Of a stretch of DNA of 64,000 nt, positions 13,752-63,253 are shown piece by piece. The translations under genes were made by a program, and so were the position numbers. Each line of letters begins with the position of its first letter. The first letter of the stretch is position 1. The notes below the pieces were generated by a model that worked only from the letters and a program-made list of their open reading frames with translations, was not told the DNA's origin and searched no databases. Origin of the DNA: Paludibacteraceae bacterium (GTDB lineage Bacteria; Bacteroidota; Bacteroidia; Bacteroidales; Paludibacteraceae); contig JAFWXW010000027.1 of assembly GCA_017517845.1 (NCBI GenBank), positions 17,076 through 81,075 on the forward strand, read 5' to 3'.

Positions 13752-15236
13752 ATGACAAAGGAAGAAATATACGAATTGCTTCATAGCACGGAGACCTCAC
13801 GTATTGAGCGTACCATAAGTACGGGTGATATGGACAAATTTCAGGAAGCTATTTGTGCTTTCAGCAATGATATGTCCAATTCTCGTCAGAATGGATATCT
13901 TATTATTGGAGCAAAAGATAATGGTGATTTGTCTGGACTAAAGGTGGATGATAACCTTTTCAAGAAGATATCAGGTATCCGTAGTGATGGGAATATTTTG
14001 CCTATACCAATGATGACATGTGAGCGATACGAATTGGAAGGTGGGGATATACTTGTCGTGGAAGTACAACCTTCTTTCTCTACTCCTGTAAGGTATCGGG
14101 GTAGGACATTTATTCGTATCGGACCAAGAAGGGATATCGCAAGCATTGACGAAGAAAGGATTCTTACAGAAAAACGTATGAGCAACATGGCAACTTTTGA
14201 TGCATCGCCTTGTTATGCTGCTACAATAGATGACGTGTACATAGATATCATTAAGAATGAATACATACCTAAAGCAGTTAGTGCAGAAGAGTTGGAGAAC
14301 GATACACGAAGCATCGAACAACAGATGGCGGCATTAGGGTTGTATGATATGGTTCACAACTGTCCTACAAATGCATGTATAGTGCTCTTTGGAAAGAATC
14401 CAAAACAATTCTTATATGGTGCATATTTGCAATATGTTCGTTTTAATGGATTTGATAAGAGTGCAGAAATTGATGATGATAAGCCATTTTATGATTGTCT
14501 AGCGAAGATGATGTCTAAATTGGAATCTTTCATCGATTTTGGCGTGATAAAGACACGTCCAATAGCGGTAAGTACATTGAGAGAAAAGAATCAATCCAAC
14601 TATCCTGCCGATGCTCTTAGAGAATTAATATTGAATGCTTGTATGCATAGAGATTATCAAGCTCACATGCCTACACGTTTTTATCAGTTTGCAGATCGTA
14701 TTGAGATAATGAATCCAGGAGGACTATATGGCAAGGCACGTCCTGAAAATTTCCCTGAGGTAAATGATTATCGTAACCCCATTATTGCTCAGGCATTAAA
14801 AATCATGGGTTATGTGAATATGTTCAATAGAGGTGTAAGTCGTGTAAAGAATATGATGGTTGAGAATGGTAGCAAAGAACCTTTGTTTAATGTTGACAAG
14901 ATTACTGCTTTTGAAGTGATAAGTTATTCTGCGATAAAACACACTGATTTACAGGGATTTTATGAAGATTTTCCTAAGTTATTTCCTAAGTTATTTCCTA
15001 AGTTGCTTGATAAGTTGATTCCAAGTTATTTCCAGGAAAAGGATAAGACCGTTATTGAGGTTATTTTAACTGCTTTAGTTGAACCTAAATCAGCAAAAGA
15101 GATTGCAGAAATGATATCATGTTCAACTCGAACAATAAAAGATAAATATTTAGATAAGATGCTTCAAGCAGAAGTTATCTCTATGACTATACCTGATAAA
15201 CCAACTAGTAGAAATCAAAAATATAAATTAGTTTAA
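13752..15236 (+). CDS. AlbA_2 (Schlafen-like) / HATPase_c_4 / wHTH protein, RecG-like putative DNA-binding regulator family
   Basis: N-terminal ...AICAFSNDMSNSRQNGYLIIGAKDNG... (AlbA_2-like); central LRELILNACMHRDYQAHMPTRFYQFADRIEIMNPGGLY (HATPase_c_4-like); C-terminal HTH-like tail. Confidence 0.75.
   Translation: MTKEEIYELLHSTETSRIERTISTGDMDKFQEAICAFSNDMSNSRQNGYLIIGAKDNGDLSGLKVDDNLFKKISGIRSDGNILPIPMMTCERYELEGGDILVVEVQPSFSTPVRYRGRTFIRIGPRRDIASIDEERILTEKRMSNMATFDASPCYAATIDDVYIDIIKNEYIPKAVSAEELENDTRSIEQQMAALGLYDMVHNCPTNACIVLFGKNPKQFLYGAYLQYVRFNGFDKSAEIDDDKPFYDCLAKMMSKLESFIDFGVIKTRPIAVSTLREKNQSNYPADALRELILNACMHRDYQAHMPTRFYQFADRIEIMNPGGLYGKARPENFPEVNDYRNPIIAQALKIMGYVNMFNRGVSRVKNMMVENGSKEPLFNVDKITAFEVISYSAIKHTDLQGFYEDFPKLFPKLFPKLLDKLIPSYFQEKDKTVIEVILTALVEPKSAKEIAEMISCSTRTIKDKYLDKMLQAEVISMTIPDKPTSRNQKYKLV
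14971..15030 (+). repeat. 12-bp in-frame tandem repeat (TTCCTAAGTTAT x3 plus two degenerate units)
   Basis: Encodes FPKL-FPKL-FPKL-LDKL-IPSY in the linker before the C-terminal HTH region. Confidence 0.8.
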
Positions 15237-26737: not shown

Positions 26738-26774
26738 CTCCTAACTTCTCACTCCTAACTCCTAACTCCTAACT
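26738..26774 (+). repeat. heptamer array (CTCCTAA)n, locus A
   Basis: CTCCTAA CTTCTCA CTCCTAA CTCCTAA CTCCTAA CT; last unit contains the TAG stop (26769-26771, minus strand) of the thiamine diphosphokinase gene. Confidence 0.9.
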
Positions 26775-27386
26775 GTAATCAAGGATTACCAAAAACTCCC
26801 CATCTGCACTAATGCAACATTCATCTGCTGTGCACTCATTTAGAGTCCCTTGCCATAGAGCAGTGAAATCATAGATAGGATATTTCAGCCCCTTGCTACT
26901 AAGATTTTTTGCACCAAAATTTATAATTGAAATCTGTTGTCCCGCTTTGGACTGTATTTTTACAAAATCCTTACATGGAAAAATACTACAATAATCTGTT
27001 AGCATAATCACATTGAGTCCCATTCTTCTGTATTCCATAAGCAGACTGATGTTTCCTAATGTGTGACATTCCCTTTTTCCTGTAGCTCCTAGAATAGCAA
27101 TATTTCTAAAACCTAAATTTTGGGCATAGTTTATTGCTTTTGTAAGGTCATTGGTCTCTTGGTCTTCGACCAATATAAATTTTAGTTTGCTTTTTAGTTC
27201 TTTGTCTATAGAATCTCCATCGCCAATAGTTGCCATTGGCATTTTGCCTGTTTTTATATAACTATTGGCAGCTCCATCGCAACAAATTACTTTATCGCAA
27301 TGATTGAGTATGCTTAGGGGCAACTCGTGAGTAGGGTAGTCGCCTTCGGCTAATATTACAACTTCTATGTCGTTTAGGTTAAGCAT
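26769..27386 (-). CDS. thiamine diphosphokinase
   Basis: ATIGDGDSI motif and overall TPK-like layout; 205 aa. Confidence 0.75.
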   Translation of the reverse strand: MLNLNDIEVVILAEGDYPTHELPLSILNHCDKVICCDGAANSYIKTGKMPMATIGDGDSIDKELKSKLKFILVEDQETNDLTKAINYAQNLGFRNIAILGATGKRECHTLGNISLLMEYRRMGLNVIMLTDYCSIFPCKDFVKIQSKAGQQISIINFGAKNLSSKGLKYPIYDFTALWQGTLNECTADECCISADGEFLVILDYS

Positions 27387-37129: not shown

Positions 37130-37546
37130 TTAGTTTTGTTCAGGTTTTGGTTTTGGTATTACATTACCCTTTATATTAAGTACAATAACTTGTGGTTTTT
37201 CTTCACCAGCTTGTTGGTAACGTACTGTGATACTCTTATTAAAGTTGCCTGGACGACCTGCTGGGTTATAAGTAACTTTGATTAAACCTTTTTTCTTTGG
37301 AGCGATAGGTTCTTTTGGCCAGTTTGGAGTGGTACAACCGCAAGAAGCTTGTACGTTGGTTAAAGTAACAGCTTTTTTGCTGATGTTTTTAAATTCAAAA
37401 TCAAAAGATACTCTGCCATCTACTTCTTGGATAGAACCAAAGTCGTGAACTCTTTCTTCAAATTCAATAGCTTGTGTTGCGTCTTGTGCCCATAATGCTC
37501 CGCATACAGAGAATAATAGAGCTAATAAAAATAATCTTGTTTTCAT
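37130..37546 (-). CDS. DUF1573 domain-containing protein
   Basis: HDFGSI...FEFKN.....L.NVQASCGCTTP motif characteristic of DUF1573. Confidence 0.75.
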   Translation of the reverse strand: MKTRLFLLALLFSVCGALWAQDATQAIEFEERVHDFGSIQEVDGRVSFDFEFKNISKKAVTLTNVQASCGCTTPNWPKEPIAPKKKGLIKVTYNPAGRPGNFNKSITVRYQQAGEEKPQVIVLNIKGNVIPKPKPEQN

Positions 37547-37688
37547 ATTATTTAATGTTTAATGTTTGTTGTTTGATTCTAGGACGCAAAATTACATAAA
37601 AAGTTTATTAAAGTGGTCACTTTTTGTAGTTTTTTTTAGAATATCCTATTTTTAATAATTCTGTAACAAATAATGAAAAGAAAATAAC

Positions 37689-37696
37689 TATCTTTG
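37689..37696 (+). promoter_or_regulatory. -7 box TATCTTTG
   Basis: 18 nt upstream of dapB ATG. Confidence 0.4.
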
Positions 37697-37714
37697 TAAA
37701 AAAATATAAAACTT

Positions 37715-38434
37715 ATGAAAATAGCATTAATTGGATACGGAAAAATGGGTAAAACCATAGAGCAAATAGCTATATCTAGAGGTCATGAAGTGGTATGCAG
37801 AATAGATATAGATAATCAAGAAGATTTTAACAGTGAAGAATTTAAGTCTGCCGATGTGGCTATAGAGTTTACAGCACCAAAAGTGGCAGTAAGTAATTAT
37901 ATAAAGGCTTTTAATTCTGGAGTTTCTGTTGTGTCTGGTACAACTGGTTGGACAGAAAAAATGCCAGAAGTAGAAGCATTATGTAATGAAAAAGGATTGG
38001 CATTCTTCTGGACATCAAACTTTAGTCTAGGTGTGAATGTATTTTTTGCTGTGAATAAATATTTAGCCAAGATTATGAATCAGTTTGAAAACTACAATGT
38101 TTCTATGACTGAGGTACACCATACACAAAAATTGGACGCTCCTAGTGGTACAGCTATTAGTTTGGCAGATGATATTCTTTCTCAACTAGATAGAAAAACT
38201 TCTTGGGAACTAGCAGAAGAAGAAACAGCTTCTGATAAATTACCAATTAAAGCAATTCGTGAAGGACAAGTTCCTGGTATCCATACTATTAGGTACGAAT
38301 CAGAAGTTGATTCTATTACTATTACTCACGATGCAAAAAGCAGAATGGGATTTGCACTAGGTGCAGTTTTAGCTGCCGAATTTACCTGTGGTAAAAAAGG
38401 TATGTTAAGTATGAATGATATGTTAAAATTCTAA
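37715..38434 (+). CDS. dapB: 4-hydroxy-tetrahydrodipicolinate reductase
   Basis: KIALIGYGKMGK NAD(P) motif, EVHHTQKLDAPSGTA. Confidence 0.9.
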   Translation: MKIALIGYGKMGKTIEQIAISRGHEVVCRIDIDNQEDFNSEEFKSADVAIEFTAPKVAVSNYIKAFNSGVSVVSGTTGWTEKMPEVEALCNEKGLAFFWTSNFSLGVNVFFAVNKYLAKIMNQFENYNVSMTEVHHTQKLDAPSGTAISLADDILSQLDRKTSWELAEEETASDKLPIKAIREGQVPGIHTIRYESEVDSITITHDAKSRMGFALGAVLAAEFTCGKKGMLSMNDMLKF

Positions 38435-42565: not shown

Positions 42566-43218
42566 TGTTACATTCCACCAAAGGTATAGTTCTTCGTTTA
42601 GTCCAATACAAGGATAATAGTTATATAGCAGAGATTTTTACACAGAAATTTGGTAAGGTAAGTTTTTCTGTGCATCGTCCGCAGAGTAAAAAGGCATCTA
42701 TTAGAAACTATCATCTAATGCCGTTTTCTCTTATTGATATGCAGATAGAATATAAGGAGAATAGGGATATTCAGAAAATCTGTGAAGCAAATCTCTCTCC
42801 AGAATATTATGCCGTTGTAGAAAGTCCTGTGAAACAGTTAATCTGTCAATTTATGGCTGAGGTGGTGAGTAAAACCATAGAAAGAAATAATGCAGATGAA
42901 ATGCTTTTTGGTTATTTCACTTCTCTAATTAATACAATATCTTCCGAAAATAATTTAGGAAAATTTCCTTTGGATTTTCTTTTGGGATACGCCCAATATT
43001 TGGGAATCTATCCAGATGATAAAGAGAGTAATGAGTTTATTTCACTACTTTCTGTTGCAGATAGGGAGGTTTTATTATCTGTTATAAATGAGGACAAGGA
43101 ATTAAATAGGGTAGATAGACGTAGGGCAATACATCTTCTTTTGAAGTATTATCAATATTTTCTCCCTTCTATGGGTACAATTAAATCACTTGATGTGATT
43201 ACTGATGTACTTGGCTAA
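42565..43218 (+). CDS. recO: DNA repair protein RecO
   Basis: N-terminal OB-fold-like TKGIVLRLVQYKDNSYIAEIFTQKFGKVSF; 217 aa. Confidence 0.75.
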   Translation: MLHSTKGIVLRLVQYKDNSYIAEIFTQKFGKVSFSVHRPQSKKASIRNYHLMPFSLIDMQIEYKENRDIQKICEANLSPEYYAVVESPVKQLICQFMAEVVSKTIERNNADEMLFGYFTSLINTISSENNLGKFPLDFLLGYAQYLGIYPDDKESNEFISLLSVADREVLLSVINEDKELNRVDRRRAIHLLLKYYQYFLPSMGTIKSLDVITDVLG

Positions 43219-44256
43219 ATATTCTTGCTCTGTTTGACCAGGGGTTGGGATAAGTGTAGCATTTTGTAGTTTTCCTAAAGCATATAAGTCCATAATACTA
43301 CTATATCCGCTGCGGCAAATAATTTTATCTGCTTTGAGTATATATTCTTGTAGTTCTTCTGCACTCATGTAGTTGTACACTATTACTTTACCTACTTTTG
43401 TAATCTTTTGCTGAGCTTCAATTTTTCCTTGCACAAGTATGATATTTTCATGTGGATTATCTTGAAGTGAAGTCAAAAGTTCTTCTTCAAACATTGTTCG
43501 TTGAGGCTCCGCTCCAGATAATATAGTTAGGAGTGAGGAGTTAGGAGTGAGGAGTGAGGAATTTTGCGAGTAAGCGAGAGCAATGTTAAGCTTGCTTATG
43601 CATAGCCGAGCGGGAGCAAAATCACGGGCGCAGTCCGTAATTATGGTTTCATGCCCGTAGGGTGTGCATCTTTTAGAAAATCTAGAAATCGCCCCAATAT
43701 ATTTCACACATCGTGGCATTATAGCCGGATGTGAAAGTTCACCCGCAAGCGATTTCTCTTTGTTTTCATAGTCTGGAACCCAGCATTCTGTAAACCTATT
43801 TATAATGCACCTGTGAACAAATGCAACAAAAGGCTCTAGCCACGTCCAACCTTTGGGTAATTTTATCCAAAGTTGGTGGGTAATATATGCAGAAGGGGTG
43901 GTATTATGAAAAAGTCCAAATCTATTGTCAGAGACAATGAAGTCTATATTTTCTTCCTTTACTATTCTTTTTAAGACTTGATGCTCCTTAATGCTATAAA
44001 AGATAAGTCTTGGGAATGCTTTCACCACAGCCCATACCTGAGAATTTCCAGAAGAATATTTCATCTTAAAAGATGGAATCTCTATAGAATGCAGAGTGGG
44101 GAATTGCTTTTTTAGGAGTTCCAAAGACAGACCAGAACCAGCGATAATAACATTATCGCCTAGTTCTATGTATCTGTTTATAATGGGAATAATTCTAGAC
44201 GCATGACCCAATCCCCAGTCTAATGGTGAAATTAATATGCGTCTATTATTTTTCAT
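43186..44256 (-). CDS. GT-B glycosyltransferase (GT28/MGT-like) carrying a 49-codon repeat-element insertion
   Basis: N-terminal ISPLDWGLGHASR, C-terminal CRSGYSSIMDL...IPTPGQTEQE; residues RCTPYG...SSLLT are encoded by repeat locus B. Confidence 0.7.
   Translation of the reverse strand: MKNNRRILISPLDWGLGHASRIIPIINRYIELGDNVIIAGSGLSLELLKKQFPTLHSIEIPSFKMKYSSGNSQVWAVVKAFPRLIFYSIKEHQVLKRIVKEENIDFIVSDNRFGLFHNTTPSAYITHQLWIKLPKGWTWLEPFVAFVHRCIINRFTECWVPDYENKEKSLAGELSHPAIMPRCVKYIGAISRFSKRCTPYGHETIITDCARDFAPARLCISKLNIALAYSQNSSLLTPNSSLLTILSGAEPQRTMFEEELLTSLQDNPHENIILVQGKIEAQQKITKVGKVIVYNYMSAEELQEYILKADKIICRSGYSSIMDLYALGKLQNATLIPTPGQTEQEYLAKYISNHIK
43525..43671 (-). repeat. mosaic repeat element, locus B, inside the glycosyltransferase ORF
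   Basis: Minus strand reads Ma TGCACACCCTACGGGCATG, Mc GATTTTGCTCCCG, Md CTCGGC-hairpin-TGCTCTCGCTTACTCGCAAAATT, then 5 heptamers (TTCCTCA CTCCTCA CTCCTAA CTCCTCA CTCCTAA). Confidence 0.85.
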
Positions 44257-49322: not shown

Positions 49323-49342
49323 AATAATACTAGATAAAAACG

Positions 49343-49378
49343 ATAATGGCCTCAAGAAATTGAGGTCATTATTTTTTT
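49343..49378 (+). terminator. pgm terminator hairpin, direct-repeat copy 1
   Basis: AATAATGGCCTCAA-GAAA-TTGAGGTCATTATT + T-run; near-identical copy at 50467-50503. Confidence 0.65.
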
Positions 49379-49397: not shown

Positions 49398-50273
49398 TTA
49401 TTTCAACTTATTTAAAATATCTTCTGCTGTTATTGAGTTTAACAATGTTACTGCACAGAGTTTCTGACCAATGTCTTTTATTGAGGCTCCTATATGATAA
49501 ACTTTATTATCTACAATCATAAATCTGTCGTGACAAGTTTTGTTCACATACACAGTTACTGGTGGATATTGAATATTATGTTTATCTAAATCATGAGTAA
49601 ATTGTTCACTCTTTTTATAAGTGTAAATTTCTGCTATCAAACCTGTTTTACGTTTTGATAGTAATGTTAAAACAGAATCATCAACATAATTATCTATAAT
49701 GATAATGCGAACTTTTGCTTGTTTTACCAAATCAGACATCAAAATATGAGCATCAAAGACTTGATTATTGTGAAATACTCCTTCTACTGGTGGTAATGAA
49801 GTACGAACAAAGAAGTCAACCTGCTCTGTAAGATGCTCAATCTTTTGTTCGTGCTCGTATAGTTTATTATCAATCTTATTTTCAAGAGTTTCAATGCGTT
49901 GATTAACAGCATATCCACGAAGTAAATAATCTTTCAAGACTTTATTCGCCCATTGGCGAAATTGAACTCCTTGTTTACTTTTAACCCGATAACCAACAGA
50001 TGTTATAACTTCTATATTGTAATATTCTACATTGTATGTTTTACCATCCGTCGCAGTTGTCGCAAAATTTGCGACAACTGAACAATTAGATAATTCTTCA
50101 CGTAATGCATTATTAATGTGTTTGCCAATAGTTTTGATGTCACGTCCAAAAAGTTGTGCTATTTGTTGTCTGTTCAACCAAACAGTTTCATTTTCCAAGC
50201 GTACTTCTAAACTAATACTCTCATTAGGAGAATAAAGAATGATTTGATTTTGATCTAAATTTTGATTTTTCAT
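49398..50273 (-). CDS. RhuM family (virulence RhuM-like) protein
   Basis: WLNRQQIAQLFGRDIKTIGKHINN...YYNIEVITSVGYRVKSKQGVQFRQWANKVLKDYLLRGYAVNQR matches the RhuM family core as I recall it; C-terminal HDRF...HIGASIKDIGQK module. Confidence 0.75.
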   Translation of the reverse strand: MKNQNLDQNQIILYSPNESISLEVRLENETVWLNRQQIAQLFGRDIKTIGKHINNALREELSNCSVVANFATTATDGKTYNVEYYNIEVITSVGYRVKSKQGVQFRQWANKVLKDYLLRGYAVNQRIETLENKIDNKLYEHEQKIEHLTEQVDFFVRTSLPPVEGVFHNNQVFDAHILMSDLVKQAKVRIIIIDNYVDDSVLTLLSKRKTGLIAEIYTYKKSEQFTHDLDKHNIQYPPVTVYVNKTCHDRFMIVDNKVYHIGASIKDIGQKLCAVTLLNSITAEDILNKLK

Positions 50274-50403: not shown

Positions 50404-50466
50404 GCAAAAACTAGCGAAATAACAAAACATAAATATAGGCATAAATATCAATATAGGGTAATAAAA

Positions 50467-50503
50467 ATAATGACCTCAAGAGATTGAGGTCATTATTTTT
50501 TTT
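50467..50503. terminator. terminator hairpin, direct-repeat copy 2
   Basis: AATAATGACCTCAA-GAGA-TTGAGGTCATTATT + T8; differs from copy 1 at two positions within the hairpin. Confidence 0.6.
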
Positions 50504-50522
50504 ATGGTAATTTAAAAGAAAA

Positions 50523-57200: not shown

Positions 57201-57658
57201 TATGTGATATATGGGTTTTCCATATCTATCCAGTAACCCATTTTACTGGTCAAACTTTCCCATTCTTTGGTATATTTCATCACGTCTTTGCGACAGTGTG
57301 AATTATAATCCTCTACAGAGATAGTATTACCGATGTCTTCTTTTGTAATGCCAAGTGCTTTTTCTACACCAAGTTCTACAGGAAGACCATGAGTGTCCCA
57401 ACCTGCTTTACGAGTAACCTTAAATCCTTGCATAGTTTTGTAACGAAGGAAAAGGTCTTTGATAGAACGAGCCATAACGTGGTGAATACCAGGCATACCG
57501 TTGGCAGAAGGTGGTCCTTCAAAGAAAACGAATGGAGTGCAACCCTCTCTAGTCTCTATACTTTTCTTGAAAACATCATTCTTTTCCCATTCTGCTTGTA
57601 CTTCTTTGCCCACAGCAGATAGGTTAAATTGTTGATACTCTGTAAATTTCTTGCTCAT
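54284..57658 (-). CDS. ileS: isoleucine--tRNA ligase
   Basis: HIGH-type PSANGMPGIHH, KMSKS KMSKRLGN; 1124 aa. Confidence 0.95.
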   Translation of the reverse strand: MSKKFTEYQQFNLSAVGKEVQAEWEKNDVFKKSIETREGCTPFVFFEGPPSANGMPGIHHVMARSIKDLFLRYKTMQGFKVTRKAGWDTHGLPVELGVEKALGITKEDIGNTISVEDYNSHCRKDVMKYTKEWESLTSKMGYWIDMENPYITYTNDYIESLWWLLKQLYNKGLLYKGYTIQPYSPAAGSGLSSHELNQPGCYRDVKDTTVTAQFKVKGEENLYILAWTTTPWTLSSNTALCVGPNIDYVRYATQNPYTKEDIEVILAKDLFKAYFKDAECPAETFKGSEIVGLEYEPLLPFFTPIEEGAFRVIAGDYVTTEDGTGIVHIAPTFGADDARVAKAAGIPPMQVIDKNGNLRPLVDLQGKFYTIEDLDAEYVSKYVNVDAYKEFAGRFVKNAYDANLTDQDETLDISICMYLKQKGQAFKIEKHTHNYPHCWRTDKPVLYYPLDSWFIRSTACKDEMVELNKTINWKPASTGAGRFGKWLENLQDWNLSRSRYWGTPLPIWRTEEGKEEICIGSIEELMNEIEKSIAAGFMSENPFKNFKVGDYSKENYSTENIDLHRPYVDNIVLVSASGKPMYRESDLIDVWFDSGAMPYAQLHYPFENKELIDENKFFPADFINEGVDQTRGWFFTLHAISTMIKGSVAFKNVISNGLVLDKNGNKMSKRLGNSVDPFNAIEKYGADSVRWYMMTNSAPWDNLKFDPAGVEEVLRKFFGTLYNTYSFFALYANVDNFTYAEAEVPMNERPEIDQWILSKLNTLIKDVKDGFDAYEPTRAGRAISDFVTESLSNWYVRLNRKRYWAGKMDTDKLSAYQTLYTCLETVARLMAPIAPFYADRLFCDLNNATGRFSEISVHLCKFPEVNEELINSELEDKMDIAQSITSLALALRKKANIKVRQPLSRIMIPSADATTDSHIKSVEDLLKNELNIKDIEIVTDSQGVFVKRIKPDFKKLGPKCGKNMKTVANTLQNLSQEEIYRFEADGFYKVNIDAAEIEISTEDVAIFSEDIPGWLVANEGKLTIALDITLTAELEAEGTARELINRIQNLRKSNGLEITDRINISVYAQGENFSDINNAINNHKEYILAQILCDNLELSDNYDAKNGEEIEFGAENIFILLEKA

Positions 57659-57694
57659 ATTGTTGTGTTTTTTATTTTCTAAATTCTAATTATT

Positions 57695-57966
57695 CGGGCT
57701 ATGCCCTCATGATTGCTGGCTGTGTATTAGCTTCGCTGAAGTTGCTTACGTTCGGCATAATCAAAGTAAACTTTGCTTCTGCTCTCACTAACTCGCAACA
57801 TTCGGCATAACTTAAGCAAGCTTAGTTCTGCTCTCACTTGCACAAATTACTCGCTTCGCTCGTGATTTTGCTCCCGTTCGGCAATGATTAAGTAAACTTA
57901 TCATTGCTCTCACTTACTCGCAAAATTCCTAACTCCTAACTCCTAACTCCTAACTATTAACTATTA
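57695..57966 (+). repeat. mosaic repeat element, locus C (three tandem hairpin units plus heptamer tail)
   Basis: Units 57751-57800, 57801-57846, 57847-57925 each carry TTCGGCA-hairpin-TGCTCTCACT...; Mb 57847-57861, Mc 57864-57876; heptamers 57926-57966. Confidence 0.9.
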
Positions 57967-58383
57967 TCGTAGTCTATCAAGCGAGCGAACTAACGCTTCA
58001 TCCTTCCCTATGGCACGAATAGCTAGATATGTTAATATGATATTAATGAACGGAATTGCAAAAACGCCTAAAATATGTGTTGGAAGTACTTCTTCTACTG
58101 TGTAATTAGATTTAAAATAGAAGAAATATGCCACCATACTAATGATTTGGAATATCATTAATATTATATTAAAACTATTTACTCGCATCTGTAAAATGCG
58201 TTTTTTAAATAGGAAAATACTAATAAAAGATACGATAGGAATTAATACTGTAAGACCTGCGTAAATGTAACAGTTATCAAGACCTAAAGTAAGTCCTTTT
58301 ACACTAGCAAAGGGACTACAACATTGAAAAATGCCTAAGGCAGTAACAATGAATAAATAAATACTTTGGATACGTTGAATCAT
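57964..58383 (-). CDS. multi-pass membrane protein (resembles DUF4293)
   Basis: Four hydrophobic helices; start at ATG 58383 (MIQRIQSIYLF); stop codon lies in a degenerate heptamer unit. Confidence 0.55.
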   Translation of the reverse strand: MIQRIQSIYLFIVTALGIFQCCSPFASVKGLTLGLDNCYIYAGLTVLIPIVSFISIFLFKKRILQMRVNSFNIILMIFQIISMVAYFFYFKSNYTVEEVLPTHILGVFAIPFINIILTYLAIRAIGKDEALVRSLDRLR

Positions 58384-58400
58384 AGCGTCGCAAAGATACA

Positions 58401-58440
58401 AAAAAAACCGCAAAGCTGAGCTTTACGGTTTATTTTTTTT
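58401..58440 (-). terminator. hairpin terminator after the small acidic protein gene
   Basis: CCGCAAAGC-TGA-GCTTTACGG flanked by A7 and T-run. Confidence 0.55.
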
Positions 58441-60523: not shown

Positions 60524-60702
60524 TTACTCGCTACGCTCACTCCTCATTGCCTACGGCGATTTTGCTCCCGCTCGGCATAATCAAAATAAATTTTGCTTCT
60601 GCTCTCACTTACTCGCAAAATTATTCCCTTCGGTCATCAACTCGTCCTAACTCCTAACTCCTAATTCCTAACTCCTAATTCCTAACTCCTAACTCCTAAC
60701 TA
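60524..60702 (+). repeat. mosaic repeat element, locus D
   Basis: Mb 60524-60538, Mc 60558-60570, Md 60571-60622, eight heptamers 60644-60699 plus CTA, which is the nadE TAG stop. Confidence 0.9.
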
Positions 60703-61488
60703 TATCCCGTATTCCTCTAAGAAATAGTCAGGTAAATTTGGTAGGAATGCAGGCAATTGCACCGCATGAAGTTTAAACTGCATAAACTTATACCTATTTA
60801 TTATCTTCTCATAGTGTTCACCCACTTCATTTAATCTAATTACTTGATTAATTTCATGGTAGGTCCAGCCTAAATTGTCTTCGTCAGTCTTTCCGCACAT
60901 GCCATCAGAAGGTGCTTTGTGAGTAAGGTCAAATGGGAGTCCTAAATAATCACCCATTGCCACAACTTCTTCTGTGGTAAGTTTTGCCACAGGAGCAAAG
61001 TCACCAGCACTATCTCCATAATGAGTAGAATATCCTTGAACATCTTCTGAACGATTACAAGTATTTACCACGCGTGCGTTACCTATTATCGCACCTATTC
61101 CATATAGTGTAGTCATACGTAGTCGGGCAGGGGTGTTTGTAAGGTATTGAGGACTCAAGGATTCTAGATCCAACTTTGATTTTATTTCTTCTGTTAGTCC
61201 ATTGTAGGCATTGTTTATATTAATAGTAATATGAGGGATTTGTAAGAAATCTACTATTTTTTGTGAATCGGAGATATCTGGTTGTATCCCATTGGGCATC
61301 ATAACACCCAAAATACGTTCTTTGCCTATAGCTTTGGCACACAATGCTGCCACCACAGTAGAATCTTTTCCACCGCTAATGCCAATGACCACTTTGGTGG
61401 AATCATTTCCATTTTTACTCATCCATTCTTGTATCCATTTGATACAAGAGTCAGTGATTTGTGCTACATTAAATACGTATGGTTTCAT
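60700..61488 (-). CDS. nadE: NAD(+) synthase (ammonia-dependent type)
   Basis: PP-loop GISGGKDSTVV; start at ATG 61488 gives an ATGA overlap with the galE stop. Confidence 0.85.
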   Translation of the reverse strand: MKPYVFNVAQITDSCIKWIQEWMSKNGNDSTKVVIGISGGKDSTVVAALCAKAIGKERILGVMMPNGIQPDISDSQKIVDFLQIPHITININNAYNGLTEEIKSKLDLESLSPQYLTNTPARLRMTTLYGIGAIIGNARVVNTCNRSEDVQGYSTHYGDSAGDFAPVAKLTTEEVVAMGDYLGLPFDLTHKAPSDGMCGKTDEDNLGWTYHEINQVIRLNEVGEHYEKIINRYKFMQFKLHAVQLPAFLPNLPDYFLEEYGI

Positions 61489-62504
61489 TTTTTGCCCAAT
61501 TTTTCTTGCCAACGCCATGCAGAAAGTAGAGTTTCTTCTACAGACTTTTCTGCTTTCCAACCTAGTTCTGTGTTAGCCCAAGTAGGGTCTGCCCAAACTT
61601 GTTCTATATCTCCTGCACGTCTGCCTACTATTTTATAGTTGAGTTTTACTCCAGTTACTTTTTGGAAAACATCTATAATTTCTAATACAGAAAGACCTTT
61701 ACCAGTACCTATATTAAATATTTCAACAGGTTTTTTATTTAATTTTTCAGAAAGTCTTTTTACTGCTACAACGTGAGCCTTAGCCAAGTCTGTAACATTA
61801 ATATAGTCACGAATACATGAACCATCTGGAGTGTTGTAATCATCGCCGAATACACTTAAACATTCTCTAATACCAGCAGCAGTTTGGGTGACGTATGGAA
61901 TAAGGTTTTGAGGCACACCTATTGGAAGTTCACCTATTTCTGCACTTTCGTGAGCACCTATTGGGTTGAAGTAACGTAATAGGATGGCAGAAATATTTCC
62001 GTCTGCACTCACAGTGTCTGTGATAATTTCTTCGCAAATCTGTTTGGTATTGCCGTATGGCGAAAGAGCTGTTTGGATAGGTGCGTTTTCGGTAACAGGA
62101 AGTATTTCTGGTTGTCCGTAAACAGTACAAGAAGATGAAAAAACTATGTTTTTAATTTCATGTTTCTTCATAAGTTCTAGCAAGTTTATCAGTGAAACTA
62201 GATTGTTTCTGTAGTACAAAAGTGGATTCTCTACAGATTCGCCTACTGCCTTGCTTGCCGCAAAGTGTATAATGGAATCAATGCCTTTGTTTTCTTCCAT
62301 TAGTTTATCCAATGCGTCTTTGTCTCTACAATCTATTTCGTAAAATTTAGGTCTTACGCCACAGATTTTTTCGATACCATCTAGCACTCCAATGTTTGAG
62401 TTTGAAAGGTTGTCTACAATTATTGGCTCGCAACCTGCGTTTATAAGTTCTACCACAGTGTGTGAACCAATAAAACCAGTACCTCCAGTTACTAAAATTT
62501 TCAT
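61485..62504 (-). CDS. galE: UDP-glucose 4-epimerase
   Basis: VTGGTGFIGSH, catalytic YGNTK; 339 aa. Confidence 0.92.
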   Translation of the reverse strand: MKILVTGGTGFIGSHTVVELINAGCEPIIVDNLSNSNIGVLDGIEKICGVRPKFYEIDCRDKDALDKLMEENKGIDSIIHFAASKAVGESVENPLLYYRNNLVSLINLLELMKKHEIKNIVFSSSCTVYGQPEILPVTENAPIQTALSPYGNTKQICEEIITDTVSADGNISAILLRYFNPIGAHESAEIGELPIGVPQNLIPYVTQTAAGIRECLSVFGDDYNTPDGSCIRDYINVTDLAKAHVVAVKRLSEKLNKKPVEIFNIGTGKGLSVLEIIDVFQKVTGVKLNYKIVGRRAGDIEQVWADPTWANTELGWKAEKSVEETLLSAWRWQEKLGKK

Positions 62505-62536: not shown

Positions 62537-62716
62537 GATGCACACCCTATGGGCGTGCCCTTTGGGGTCTATTATATACAGGCGTTGCGCTACGCTTAAC
62601 ACCTGCCTACTTAGAGAAAAACCCCTACGGGGTTGAATTAATTCCTAATTACTCGCTTCGCTCGGCATAGTTCAAACAAGTTTGACTCTGCTCTCGTTTG
62701 CACATTAATTCCTAAC
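62537..62716 (+). repeat. mosaic repeat element, locus E (fills the def-galE spacer)
   Basis: Ma 62539-62557, Mb 62649-62663, Md 62661-62710, single TTCCTAAC unit 62709-62716 that encodes the last codons of def. Confidence 0.85.
62615..62634 (-). terminator. weak terminator-like hairpin inside repeat locus E
   Basis: Minus strand AACCCC-GTA-GGGGTT followed by TTTTCTC; short stem. Confidence 0.3.
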
Positions 62717-63253
62717 TTTATAATGCGTTCTCACCTTGCCTTTGCTTAGCGAAGAAAGTTTTGAAGATATCATTTGTCTGCGGATAGGAGAGATTCTATC
62801 AACAAACACGTGACCCATTAGGTGATCGTATTCGTGTTGAATGGCACGAGCCTCAAAACCAGAATAAGTTTCAGTTTTTTCTACCCAGTTTTCATCAAAA
62901 TAATGAATGGTAACAGAAAGTGAGCGTGGTACTCTCTCAGATATTCCAGGAATGCTTAAACAACCCTCTTCCTTGCTTTCTTTTTCTTCACTAAAGAAAG
63001 TAATTTCTGGATTAATAAATACCTTTTTAAAGTTTGCCCATTCTGGATTTTCGTCCTTTATAATACTTAAATCTACAATAAACAATTTTATAGGTAATCC
63101 TATCTGTGGGGCAGCAAGACCCACACCCTCTGCTCTCTCCAATGTTTTAAACATATCTTCTATAAGAGTAGGGAGCTCAGGATAATCTTTGGTAATAGGT
63201 TCTGCTTGTTTTTTTAAAACTGAATTTCCGTAAATAACTATAGGGTATATCAT
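62705..63253 (-). CDS. def: peptide deformylase
   Basis: GLAAPQIG, EGCLSIPG, QHEYDHL metal-binding motifs. Confidence 0.9.
   Translation of the reverse strand: MIYPIVIYGNSVLKKQAEPITKDYPELPTLIEDMFKTLERAEGVGLAAPQIGLPIKLFIVDLSIIKDENPEWANFKKVFINPEITFFSEEKESKEEGCLSIPGISERVPRSLSVTIHYFDENWVEKTETYSGFEARAIQHEYDHLMGHVFVDRISPIRRQMISSKLSSLSKGKVRTHYKVRN

Follow-up and report, generated by a model that had tools for sequence, protein, structure and literature searches.

Small dispersed repeats that form hairpins and lie in frame within unrelated housekeeping genes have been described as Rickettsia palindromic elements (RPEs) (Ogata et al. [quoted passage not shown] A comparable case is presented here from a 64,000-nucleotide stretch of a Paludibacteraceae genome (Bacteroidota; GenBank assembly GCA_017517845.1, contig JAFWXW010000027.1, positions 17,076 to 81,075), referred to below as the window and numbered from its first base. 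On its minus strand, the open reading frame (ORF) of a glycosyltransferase (GT) of the GT-B type reads through a repeat copy of about 150 nucleotides (nt), in which a GC-rich hairpin module and a core unit of 84 nt are accompanied by five heptamers of the CTCCTAA type. Very probably, this is a translated, in-frame copy, in the interdomain loop of a selectively maintained enzyme, of a mosaic repeat that forms hairpins and lies mostly between genes.

The element shares with RPEs a length of approximately 100 to 150 bp, translation as an extra peptide at fold-compatible positions, and a host gene under selection. The two are likened by behaviour alone and not by sequence, the present family being one of Bacteroidota. 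Nearly half of the members of some RPE families are genic, whereas genic copies here are a minority, with two host genes among 92 core matches. RPE insertions are also mostly old and fixed, whereas many modular alleles in both orientations occupy one site here, and the all-frame stops in the heptamer arrays of this family need neutralisation. The original prediction for this stretch had drawn the analogy with RPEs, which is apt for the behaviour of the element; a ComEC gene likewise carries it in frame.

Repetitive extragenic palindromic (REP) sequences and bacterial interspersed mosaic elements (BIMEs) of enterobacteria and pseudomonads are similarly extragenic for the most part, lie 3' of genes between stop codon and terminator, and form hairpin mosaics of a few module types, often in tandem. 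The core is about 80 nt here versus 20 to 40 nt for REP, the flanking heptamer arrays are unusual, and copies that lie within genes can be translated in this family; a REP-associated tyrosine transposase (RAYT) was not identified, and no search aimed at RAYT was made. Features common to this family and MITEs are small size, lack of autonomy, presence/absence polymorphism between strains, and occasional in-frame fusions with host ORFs. Unlike those of MITEs, the terminal inverted repeats and target-site duplications are ill defined here, the termini being hard to place because the elements are mosaics, and the core apparently sits specifically in heptamer arrays.

In Haemophilus, Neisseria, and Campylobacter, phase variation is classically switched by repeat tracts within glycosyltransferase genes. 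The locus resembles such contingency loci (lic2A, lgtC, lgtA) in having a tandem repeat, with a unit not divisible by three, in a glycosyltransferase coding region, and in that one allele (on contig L152) is frameshifted by a single unit; it differs in its short, imperfect tract, in a host gene that belongs to the conserved core, and in having nearly every allele in frame. The closest described phenomenon is the in-frame intragenic repeat (RPEs and occasional intragenic MITEs), with intergenic behaviour like that of REP/BIME; the likeness is that of a functional analogue, with no demonstrated kinship. New here are the phylum, the element family, the all-frame-stop heptamer arrays with frame-specific neutralisation, and an exceptional turnover of alleles at a single permissive hinge, with both orientations represented and apparent exchange between clades. 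In-frame translated selfish repeats in housekeeping genes, best known from Rickettsia, are extended to Bacteroidota of gut and rumen (Paludibacteraceae near Candidatus Enterocola).

The translated copy and its host gene

The host gene and the parts of the repeat within it are as follows, all on the minus strand:

43186..44256: GT-B glycosyltransferase gene, 356 amino acids (ORF list, Pfam, gene order, AlphaFold, and Foldseek)
43678..44256: N-terminal Rossmann-type domain, codons 1-193, 579 nt, ending in ...YIGAISRF; predicted local distance difference test score (pLDDT) mostly 85-97
43525..43677: interdomain linker of 51 codons, of which 43525-43671 are the 49-codon insert (GC content, orthologue spacing, and pLDDT)
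43650..43666: GC-rich 5' hairpin module CACACCCTACGGGCATG, encoding TPYGH, which recurs in other alleles and in non-genic copies
43560..43643: core unit, with a small 5' hairpin ACGGAC-TGC-GCCCGT, then GATTTTGC...GCAAAATT, and an inner hairpin (nhmmer E = 6.8e-23)
43580..43606: inner hairpin GCTATGCATAAGC-AA-GCTTAACATTGC (covariation across 32 copies)
43527..43561: five heptamers, TTCCTCA CTCCTCA CTCCTAA CTCCTCA CTCCTAA in gene sense, encoding SSLLTPNSSLL
43189..43524: C-terminal Rossmann-type domain, ILSGAEPQR...HIK, 336 nt (Pfam Glyco_tran_28_C)

Bases 43525-43671 translate in frame as RCTPYGHETIITDCARDFAPARLCISKLNIALAYSQNSSLLTPNSSLLT, and the stretch RCTPYGHETIITDCARDF... is part of this predicted peptide. 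The GC content of the linker (48%) exceeded that of the two domains (35-37%). Spacing between the LSRF and ILSG(A/P)EPQR motifs was 14 to 18 residues in 20 Bacteroidota orthologues (35-48% identity) versus 51 in the window, and the segment is, on these alignments, lineage specific and absent from distant Bacteroidota orthologues. The foreign sequence extends a few bases past 43525-43671: the usual end of the element, CTAACTATAT, supplies the ATA codon of Ile245, and TCTAGATTT, directly upstream of the linker, follows the sequence of another clade.

The protein matched Glyco_tran_28_C (PF04101) at residues 269-354 (33.6 bits; cutoff, 22) and fell below the cutoff of TIGR00661 (MJ1255/VC2487, NCBIfam; 35.1 versus 195.9 bits); it is related to the MJ1255/VC2487 subfamily without being one of its members. 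A profile search of solved structures in the PDB gave zero matches. An AlphaFold model built with close homologues alone reached a pLDDT of 54.5. The model used here was obtained after homologues of 45-57% identity were added (pLDDT, 82.6; predicted template modelling score, 0.81), and both Rossmann-type domains were confident. Its best Foldseek matches were GT1-family GT-B enzymes (probability, 1.00; TM-scores, 0.55-0.62). Residues 196-233, between the two domains, formed the sole long, low-confidence, structure-less segment (pLDDT < 50, with 32-35 in the predicted loop), and the first C-domain strand (E241-245, LLTIL) took LLT from the heptamers, followed by IL. According to the model, the insert occupies a flexible loop between the two GT-B domains, a position compatible with the fold, and the copy would be translated as a disordered surface loop.

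The gene order radical SAM-GT-RecO was kept in every related contig (L081-L085 and L148-L152), so that the GT genes of these contigs are taken as orthologues; the GT is a single-copy core gene in a conserved neighbourhood across Bacteroidota. The window protein was 100% identical to a protein from a Paludibacteraceae metagenome-assembled genome, the identical cluster comprising four member sequences on two contigs, and the nearest named genome was Candidatus Enterocola sp.

The original prediction had described a GT-B gene at 43186-44256 reading through a 49-codon repeat copy in its interdomain linker, and the ORF, Pfam, AlphaFold, and Foldseek results all agree with this account, as does the peptide. 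Of the checks proposed there, orthologue alignment (absence of the segment from distant Bacteroidota) and structure prediction (a location between the two Rossmann-type domains) likewise bore it out. The limits of 43525 and 43671 hold for the core and heptamers, which lie within them, and are slightly too narrow for the foreign sequence as a whole.

Open frame, purifying selection, and stop avoidance

In eight alleles for which DNA was available, the ratio of nonsynonymous to synonymous substitution rates (dN/dS) was 0.10-0.21 for the N-domain and 0.03-0.15 for the C-domain, and domain lengths were invariant and free of indels (579 and 336 nt) across 12 alleles with DNA. At the sequence level, both domains are shown to be under purifying selection and the gene not to be decaying.

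Within the 147-nt insert, sense frame 0 alone is open, and each of the other five frames contains 2 to 5 stops. Three canonical heptamers in a row suffice to stop every frame in either direction, through TAA in one and TAG in the other. A genic copy would therefore be expected to survive only if its total length is a multiple of three and if units with a potential in-frame stop carry TCA (forward orientation) or TGAGGAG (reverse orientation), and the alleles show this pattern. In the window, units 1 and 4, in which TAA would fall in frame, read TCA, and units 3 and 5 keep TAA out of frame, exactly as first read. Across forward alleles, TCA was found in 6/6 in-frame units versus 2/12 out-of-frame units and 30/156 units (19%) of non-genic arrays. 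In reverse alleles, phase-0 units were TTAGGAG in 7/7 cases, because TGAGGAG would give an in-frame TGA, and phase-2 units were TGAGGAG in 2/2 cases, because TTAGGAG would give an in-frame TAG; in L149, the single obligatory unit alone was changed. These codon comparisons show that stop avoidance is frame specific, stops having been removed in the translated frame only, and such frame-limited removal is a direct signature of selection.

The original prediction suggested that the ORF had been kept open after insertion, with potential stops edited out. Frame-specific stop avoidance upholds the open frame; the "editing" may instead represent selection among standing variants, because TCA already accounts for 19% of non-genic heptamers, and stop removal need not mean mutation after insertion. 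The core was open in the frame used by the GT in 62% of non-genic copies, compared with 30-32% for the other two sense frames, and therefore needed no editing. A G variant of the core motif (CTCTCGCTT) was considered as a coding adaptation and rejected, G being the majority state in non-genic copies (42 versus 21).

Loss of frame was rare. Without selection, unconstrained length changes would be expected to leave two thirds of alleles out of frame. The typical 79-nt core and the 7-nt heptamer both leave a remainder of 1 when divided by three, so that plain insertion of a core shifts the frame and the in-frame alleles constitute a filtered subset. As an ascertainment control, a search with the N-domain only, which scores truncated and full-length proteins alike, yielded about 80 close homologues, and only 2 of these ended in the linker (P0122 on L152 and P0121 on L153). 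L152 (2050-2095; 9.9-kb contig) has four reversed heptamers (TTAGGAG TGAGGAG TTAGGAG TTAGGAA) versus five in L149, which produces a frameshift and an in-frame TAG, with the C-domain called as a separate 102-residue ORF. This allele could reflect slippage (an OFF state) or an assembly error. The P0121 sequence is unreliable because it lies on an 884-nt contig with a coverage of 1.1.

Linker alleles, their history, and rival explanations

The 120 closest homologue clusters (69-100% identity) comprised proteins of 318 to 393 residues, and length variation was confined to the linker in 38 aligned homologues. Linkers of 13 to 88 residues, assembled from the same modules in both orientations, were obtained from 118 of the 120 clusters. 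Among the recurring modules were SKRCTPYGR(E/A)T, a module of 30 residues between direct repeats of CACACCCTACGGGCGTG, the core (in some alleles with a nested IPFGHQYVS), and heptamer triplets of 7 residues. The GC hairpin module CACACCCTACGGGCATG occurred twice in L084 and L103, as a direct repeat around an extra 90-nt module, and adjoined non-genic copies in L090 and L092. In many alleles the linker reads QLGVRSEELGVRN..., which is the element's DNA translated from its other strand; at DNA level, this was verified for L081 (40 nt at 87.5% identity, in minus orientation). Every allele seen in the genus carried some element-derived sequence at the linker. The optional IPFGHQYVS segment corresponds to a sub-module of about 24 to 26 nt, ATTCCCT(T/A)CGGTCATCA(G/A)(T/C)ACGTG, which is nested at differing places (60623-60645 in the window, the L103 GT linker, and L106, L129, L130, L133, L136, and L147); it follows GCAAAATT in the window copy at 60546..60701 (copy D) and GATTTT within other cores.

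The linker is a recurrent hotspot, with alleles that differ by whole modules and heptamer triplets in either orientation, rather than the site of one clean 147-nt insertion. The earlier reading of a single insertion is sustained as to the in-frame repeat copy and gives way, as to the event, to a hotspot with modular alleles, of which that of the window was probably recombined in. Occupation of the linker by hairpin elements may be old in the genus, as suggested by sequence at the GT linker of Candidatus Enterocola sp. (L001:10568-10630): there, a 325-residue allele, NLSERSVGTLGSCVRNQILA, contains reversed heptamers in degenerate form (TTATCAG AGAGGAG TGTAGGG), after which comes another kind of GC hairpin, GGGACGC-TTGGCTCAT-GCGTCC. 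The 118 linker alleles of this enzyme constitute a natural experiment on the insertion tolerance of the GT-B hinge. Such loci also raise the number of protein clusters artificially and can be split wrongly by gene callers.

The species-level clade of the window had 92-95% nucleotide identity in both domains yet contained four different linkers: the forward full element (window), a reversed composite (L081), reversed heptamers only (L149), and degenerate reversed heptamers (L151). The GT core of the window was identical at 84/84 positions (100%) to that of L099 and 98.8% identical to that of L084, whereas the gene bodies were about 80% identical (dS, approximately 1.1) and copies C3 and D in the same genome were 80-86% identical to it. 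Up to nt 567, the N-domain had the own-clade state at 39/41 informative sites, the remaining 2 being unique to the window and none having the other-clade state; the switch to the other-clade state occurred only in the last 9 nt of the domain. Since the breakpoint falls at the end of the N-domain, the linker cassette is shown by these comparisons to have a history separate from that of the gene. The window allele was most likely acquired as a cassette through short-tract recombination between clades rather than by fresh transposition; this route, like the mode of element movement, is presumptive. Gene conversion from copies in the same genome was rejected as the cause of the strong conservation of the GT core, given 80-86% identity to C3 and D versus 99-100% identity to other-clade GT cores, and a segment inverting in place was rejected because the 147 nt of the window, when reverse complemented, contain stops in every one of the three frames.

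A heptamer tract within a GT gene could alternatively be a contingency locus, in which slipped-strand mispairing of 7 nt switches the enzyme on and off and the in-frame alleles are ON states. The 7-nt unit is indivisible by three, five units lie within the ORF (43527-43561), exactly three heptamers (7 residues) separate one ON allele from another, and L152 has lost its frame with one unit fewer than the intact L149. Nevertheless, it is unlikely, since tracts are short (2 to 8 units) and heterogeneous (TAA/TCA and TTAGGAG/TGAGGAG), and many alleles have two or fewer units, or units decayed to AAAGGAG (L151); such tracts are poor substrates for slippage. Moreover, a single credible OFF allele, possibly an assembly error (L152), was present among about 80 close homologues, and a conserved single-copy core gene with dN/dS near 0.1 is unlike accessory surface-variation genes. 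Co-option, with the loop or its length tuning the domain hinge or providing an interaction surface and the variation being adaptive, would fit the extraordinary allelic diversity at one site of a strongly conserved protein, the apparent spread of the cassette between clades, and the heptamer-encoded residues in the first C-domain strand. It is a distinctly improbable account: alleles encode unrelated peptides (SKRCTPYG... versus QLGVRSEE...) since one stretch of DNA is read from either strand, disorder is predicted for the loop, some alleles have only 13 to 19 residues, near the length in distant orthologues, and the same modules are present in non-genic copies. The insert peptide is presumably functionally neutral.

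That the gene is a decaying pseudogene, or that the in-frame reading is due to chance or assembly, is scarcely credible and already largely refuted. Repeats are hard to assemble, and one of the frameshifted alleles comes from the low-coverage contig of P0121. However, dN/dS was low in both domains, the 12 alleles had identical domain lengths, only one of six frames was open with frame-specific stop avoidance, the window protein recurred in four member sequences on two contigs, and the same or related alleles were found in many independent assemblies (five contigs for P0029 and eight for P0034).

Several points nonetheless weigh against the preferred explanation, a translated copy of a mostly intergenic mobile repeat in a maintained enzyme. 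Function of the GT with its insert is suggested by sequence conservation alone. Neither a target-site duplication nor clear terminal inverted repeats could be recognised in the element, nor was a transposase identified, although no search aimed at transposases or RAYT was made; mobility rests on presence/absence polymorphism and copy number. Cross-clade similarity of the GT cores could partly reflect sequence constraint and not recent transfer, and on/off switching is conceivable from the L152 allele, which is out of frame by one heptamer. All data are from metagenome assemblies, in which repeats are error prone, although the same alleles recur independently.

The repeat family beyond the glycosyltransferase

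A second host gene encodes a ComEC/Rec2-type membrane protein (L086:2149-3759 and L135:2193-3797), which reads through the core on the opposite strand (...NSQRSNFASKREQRQVYLTMPSESK... and ...YVNSQRSNFASKREQRQVYLTMPSESKIMSEANKVESQRSE...) and is about 40 residues longer than the TIGR00360 profile. In-frame elements were thus carried by the GT genes of the window, L081-L084, L099, L103, and L132 and by the ComEC genes of L086 and L135. Among 92 core matches to a hidden Markov model (HMM) in 1.98 Mb of fetched DNA, and in a peptide search, no host genes beyond these two were found; long ORFs read through 9 of 77 near-full core matches, all in GT or ComEC genes and several representing the same allele. 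The 49-residue peptide gave five weak matches among 1.84 billion representative proteins and no new host gene; four of these, on reading, proved to be short ORFs lying over tandem or intergenic copies, and the fifth, the top match, was 3004 amino acids long. Two short predicted proteins from other metagenomes (P0186 and P0187) consisted of tandem translated core-like units, such as DTPARQCSNKFDIALAYSYFGCAE three times over, and may therefore represent diverged relatives of the element in other taxa that were called as genes.

The family is dispersed and multicopy, with about five loci within the 64-kb window. A 21-nt heptamer probe had 15 matches in the window versus 0.00 expected by chance, repeat finding tied 43521-43642 to 57845-57964 (85% identity over 120 nt) as well as to the 26.7-kb and 60.6-kb arrays, and the core-unit HMM matched 43560-43643 (minus), 57730-57927 (plus; three units), 60546-60622 (plus), and 62658-62699 (plus). 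The copies outside the GT gene, all on the plus strand, are the following:

26738..26772: heptamer-only array of five units, one of them CTTCTCA (heptamer probe)
57730..57966: intergenic composite of core units 57730-57801, 57802-57841, and 57846-57927, four heptamers, and then CTATTAA units (HMM and repeat finding)
60546..60701: intergenic copy D, with a core unit, the sub-module ATTCCCTTCGGTCATCAACTCGT, and eight or nine heptamers (HMM and repeat finding)
62658..62699: partial core unit, intergenic between ORFs 61485..62504 and 62705..63253, both minus (nhmmer E = 4e-8)

The CTTCTCA unit had been noted in the first of these arrays and is present there. The last heptamer of that array (26766-26772) supplies the TAG stop of a thiamin pyrophosphokinase ORF (26769..27386, minus). 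The composite abuts the stop of a DUF4293 gene (57964..58413, minus), and copy D sits between the stop of an NAD synthase gene (60700-60702) and a terminator-like hairpin (60481-60456). The TAG of the NAD synthase gene (60700..61560, minus) lies in the terminal CTATAT of the element; the orthologous gene in L143 has the same terminal residues, EEYGI, but TAA at the junction. Across the family, most copies were intergenic, and in 34 of 47 the heptamer end abutted the stop codon of an opposite-strand gene. A role as canonical terminator was rejected, since the element copies themselves contained no terminator-like site.

Element anatomy was derived from an alignment of 62 metagenome contigs containing the exact 23-nt motif TGCTCTCRCTTACTCGCAAAATT. 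The canonical layout comprises CTCCTAA heptamers, a small 5' hairpin (variants GGGC/GCCC, GGAC/GTCC, and AGGC/GCCT), GATTTTGCTCCCGCTCGGCA, a variable inner hairpin, TGCTCTCRCTTACTCGCAAAATT, and more heptamers. Core units were 80 to 86 nt long (typically 79 nt between heptamers); units may be tandem, and sub-modules such as ATTCCCTTCGGTCATCA.. may be nested. RNAalifold on a MAFFT alignment recovered the structure in part, so the hairpins were specified by hand and then counted. In the inner hairpin, 92% of cells were paired across 32 copies, 6 of 10 pairs were changed on both sides, and the covariation score was 0.223, compared with 0.103 ± 0.010 for shuffles (0/500 reached it) and ≤0.10 for slid controls. 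The small 5' hairpin is a candidate structure; it was 52% paired, with the alignment between subfamilies misplaced. An 8-bp pairing of GATTTTGC with GCAAAATT is possible but is subterminal and invariant, its 3' side being fixed by the search motif.

The core HMM had 0 matches in 80 loci from distant Bacteroidota genomes. Rfam gave no match at gathering scores over the whole window or in an E-value search of 57600-58050, and the literature searched contained no description of the repeats; the family appears to be undescribed so far. An intergenic site between the DapB and DUF1573 genes had a core within a heptamer array in L084 (16590-17000), heptamers only in L085 (7823-8085), and neither core nor heptamers in L081 (16580-16780) and the window (37530-37730); a second presence/absence site of like kind was found at 18122-18204 of L084. 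Filled, heptamers-only, and empty states at orthologous sites indicate element mobility, with the core lying inside a heptamer array, and suggest that the core inserts into, or excises from, such arrays. Heptamers flanking the core on both sides may represent a 7-bp duplication or a pre-existing array. More speculatively, and with low probability, the heptamer arrays and the core of about 79 nt could form a previously undescribed two-part mobile system. The CTCCTAA arrays would be landing pads, footprints, or target duplications and would act as all-frame stop insulators that limit the damage of 3'-end insertions; the array in the GT linker would be a genus-wide hotspot for cassette insertion, inversion, trimming by threes, and very-short-tract exchange between species. 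If so, the result would be a translated hypervariable linker in an essential-type enzyme.

Two other repeats in the window were also noted. A repeat at 14970-15033, in which the 12-nt unit TTTCCTAAGTTA occurs five times within an ORF (13752..15236, plus), was considered as a family member and rejected; it encodes FPKL FPKL FPKL LDKL in frame, and its TTCCTAA is coincidental. Two copies of a different palindrome, AATAATGRCCTCAAGARATTGAGGTCATTATTTTTTT, occur at 49326-49378 and 50450-50505 in direct and inverted relation, and by sequence these look like bidirectional terminator hairpins flanking the gene at 49398..50273.

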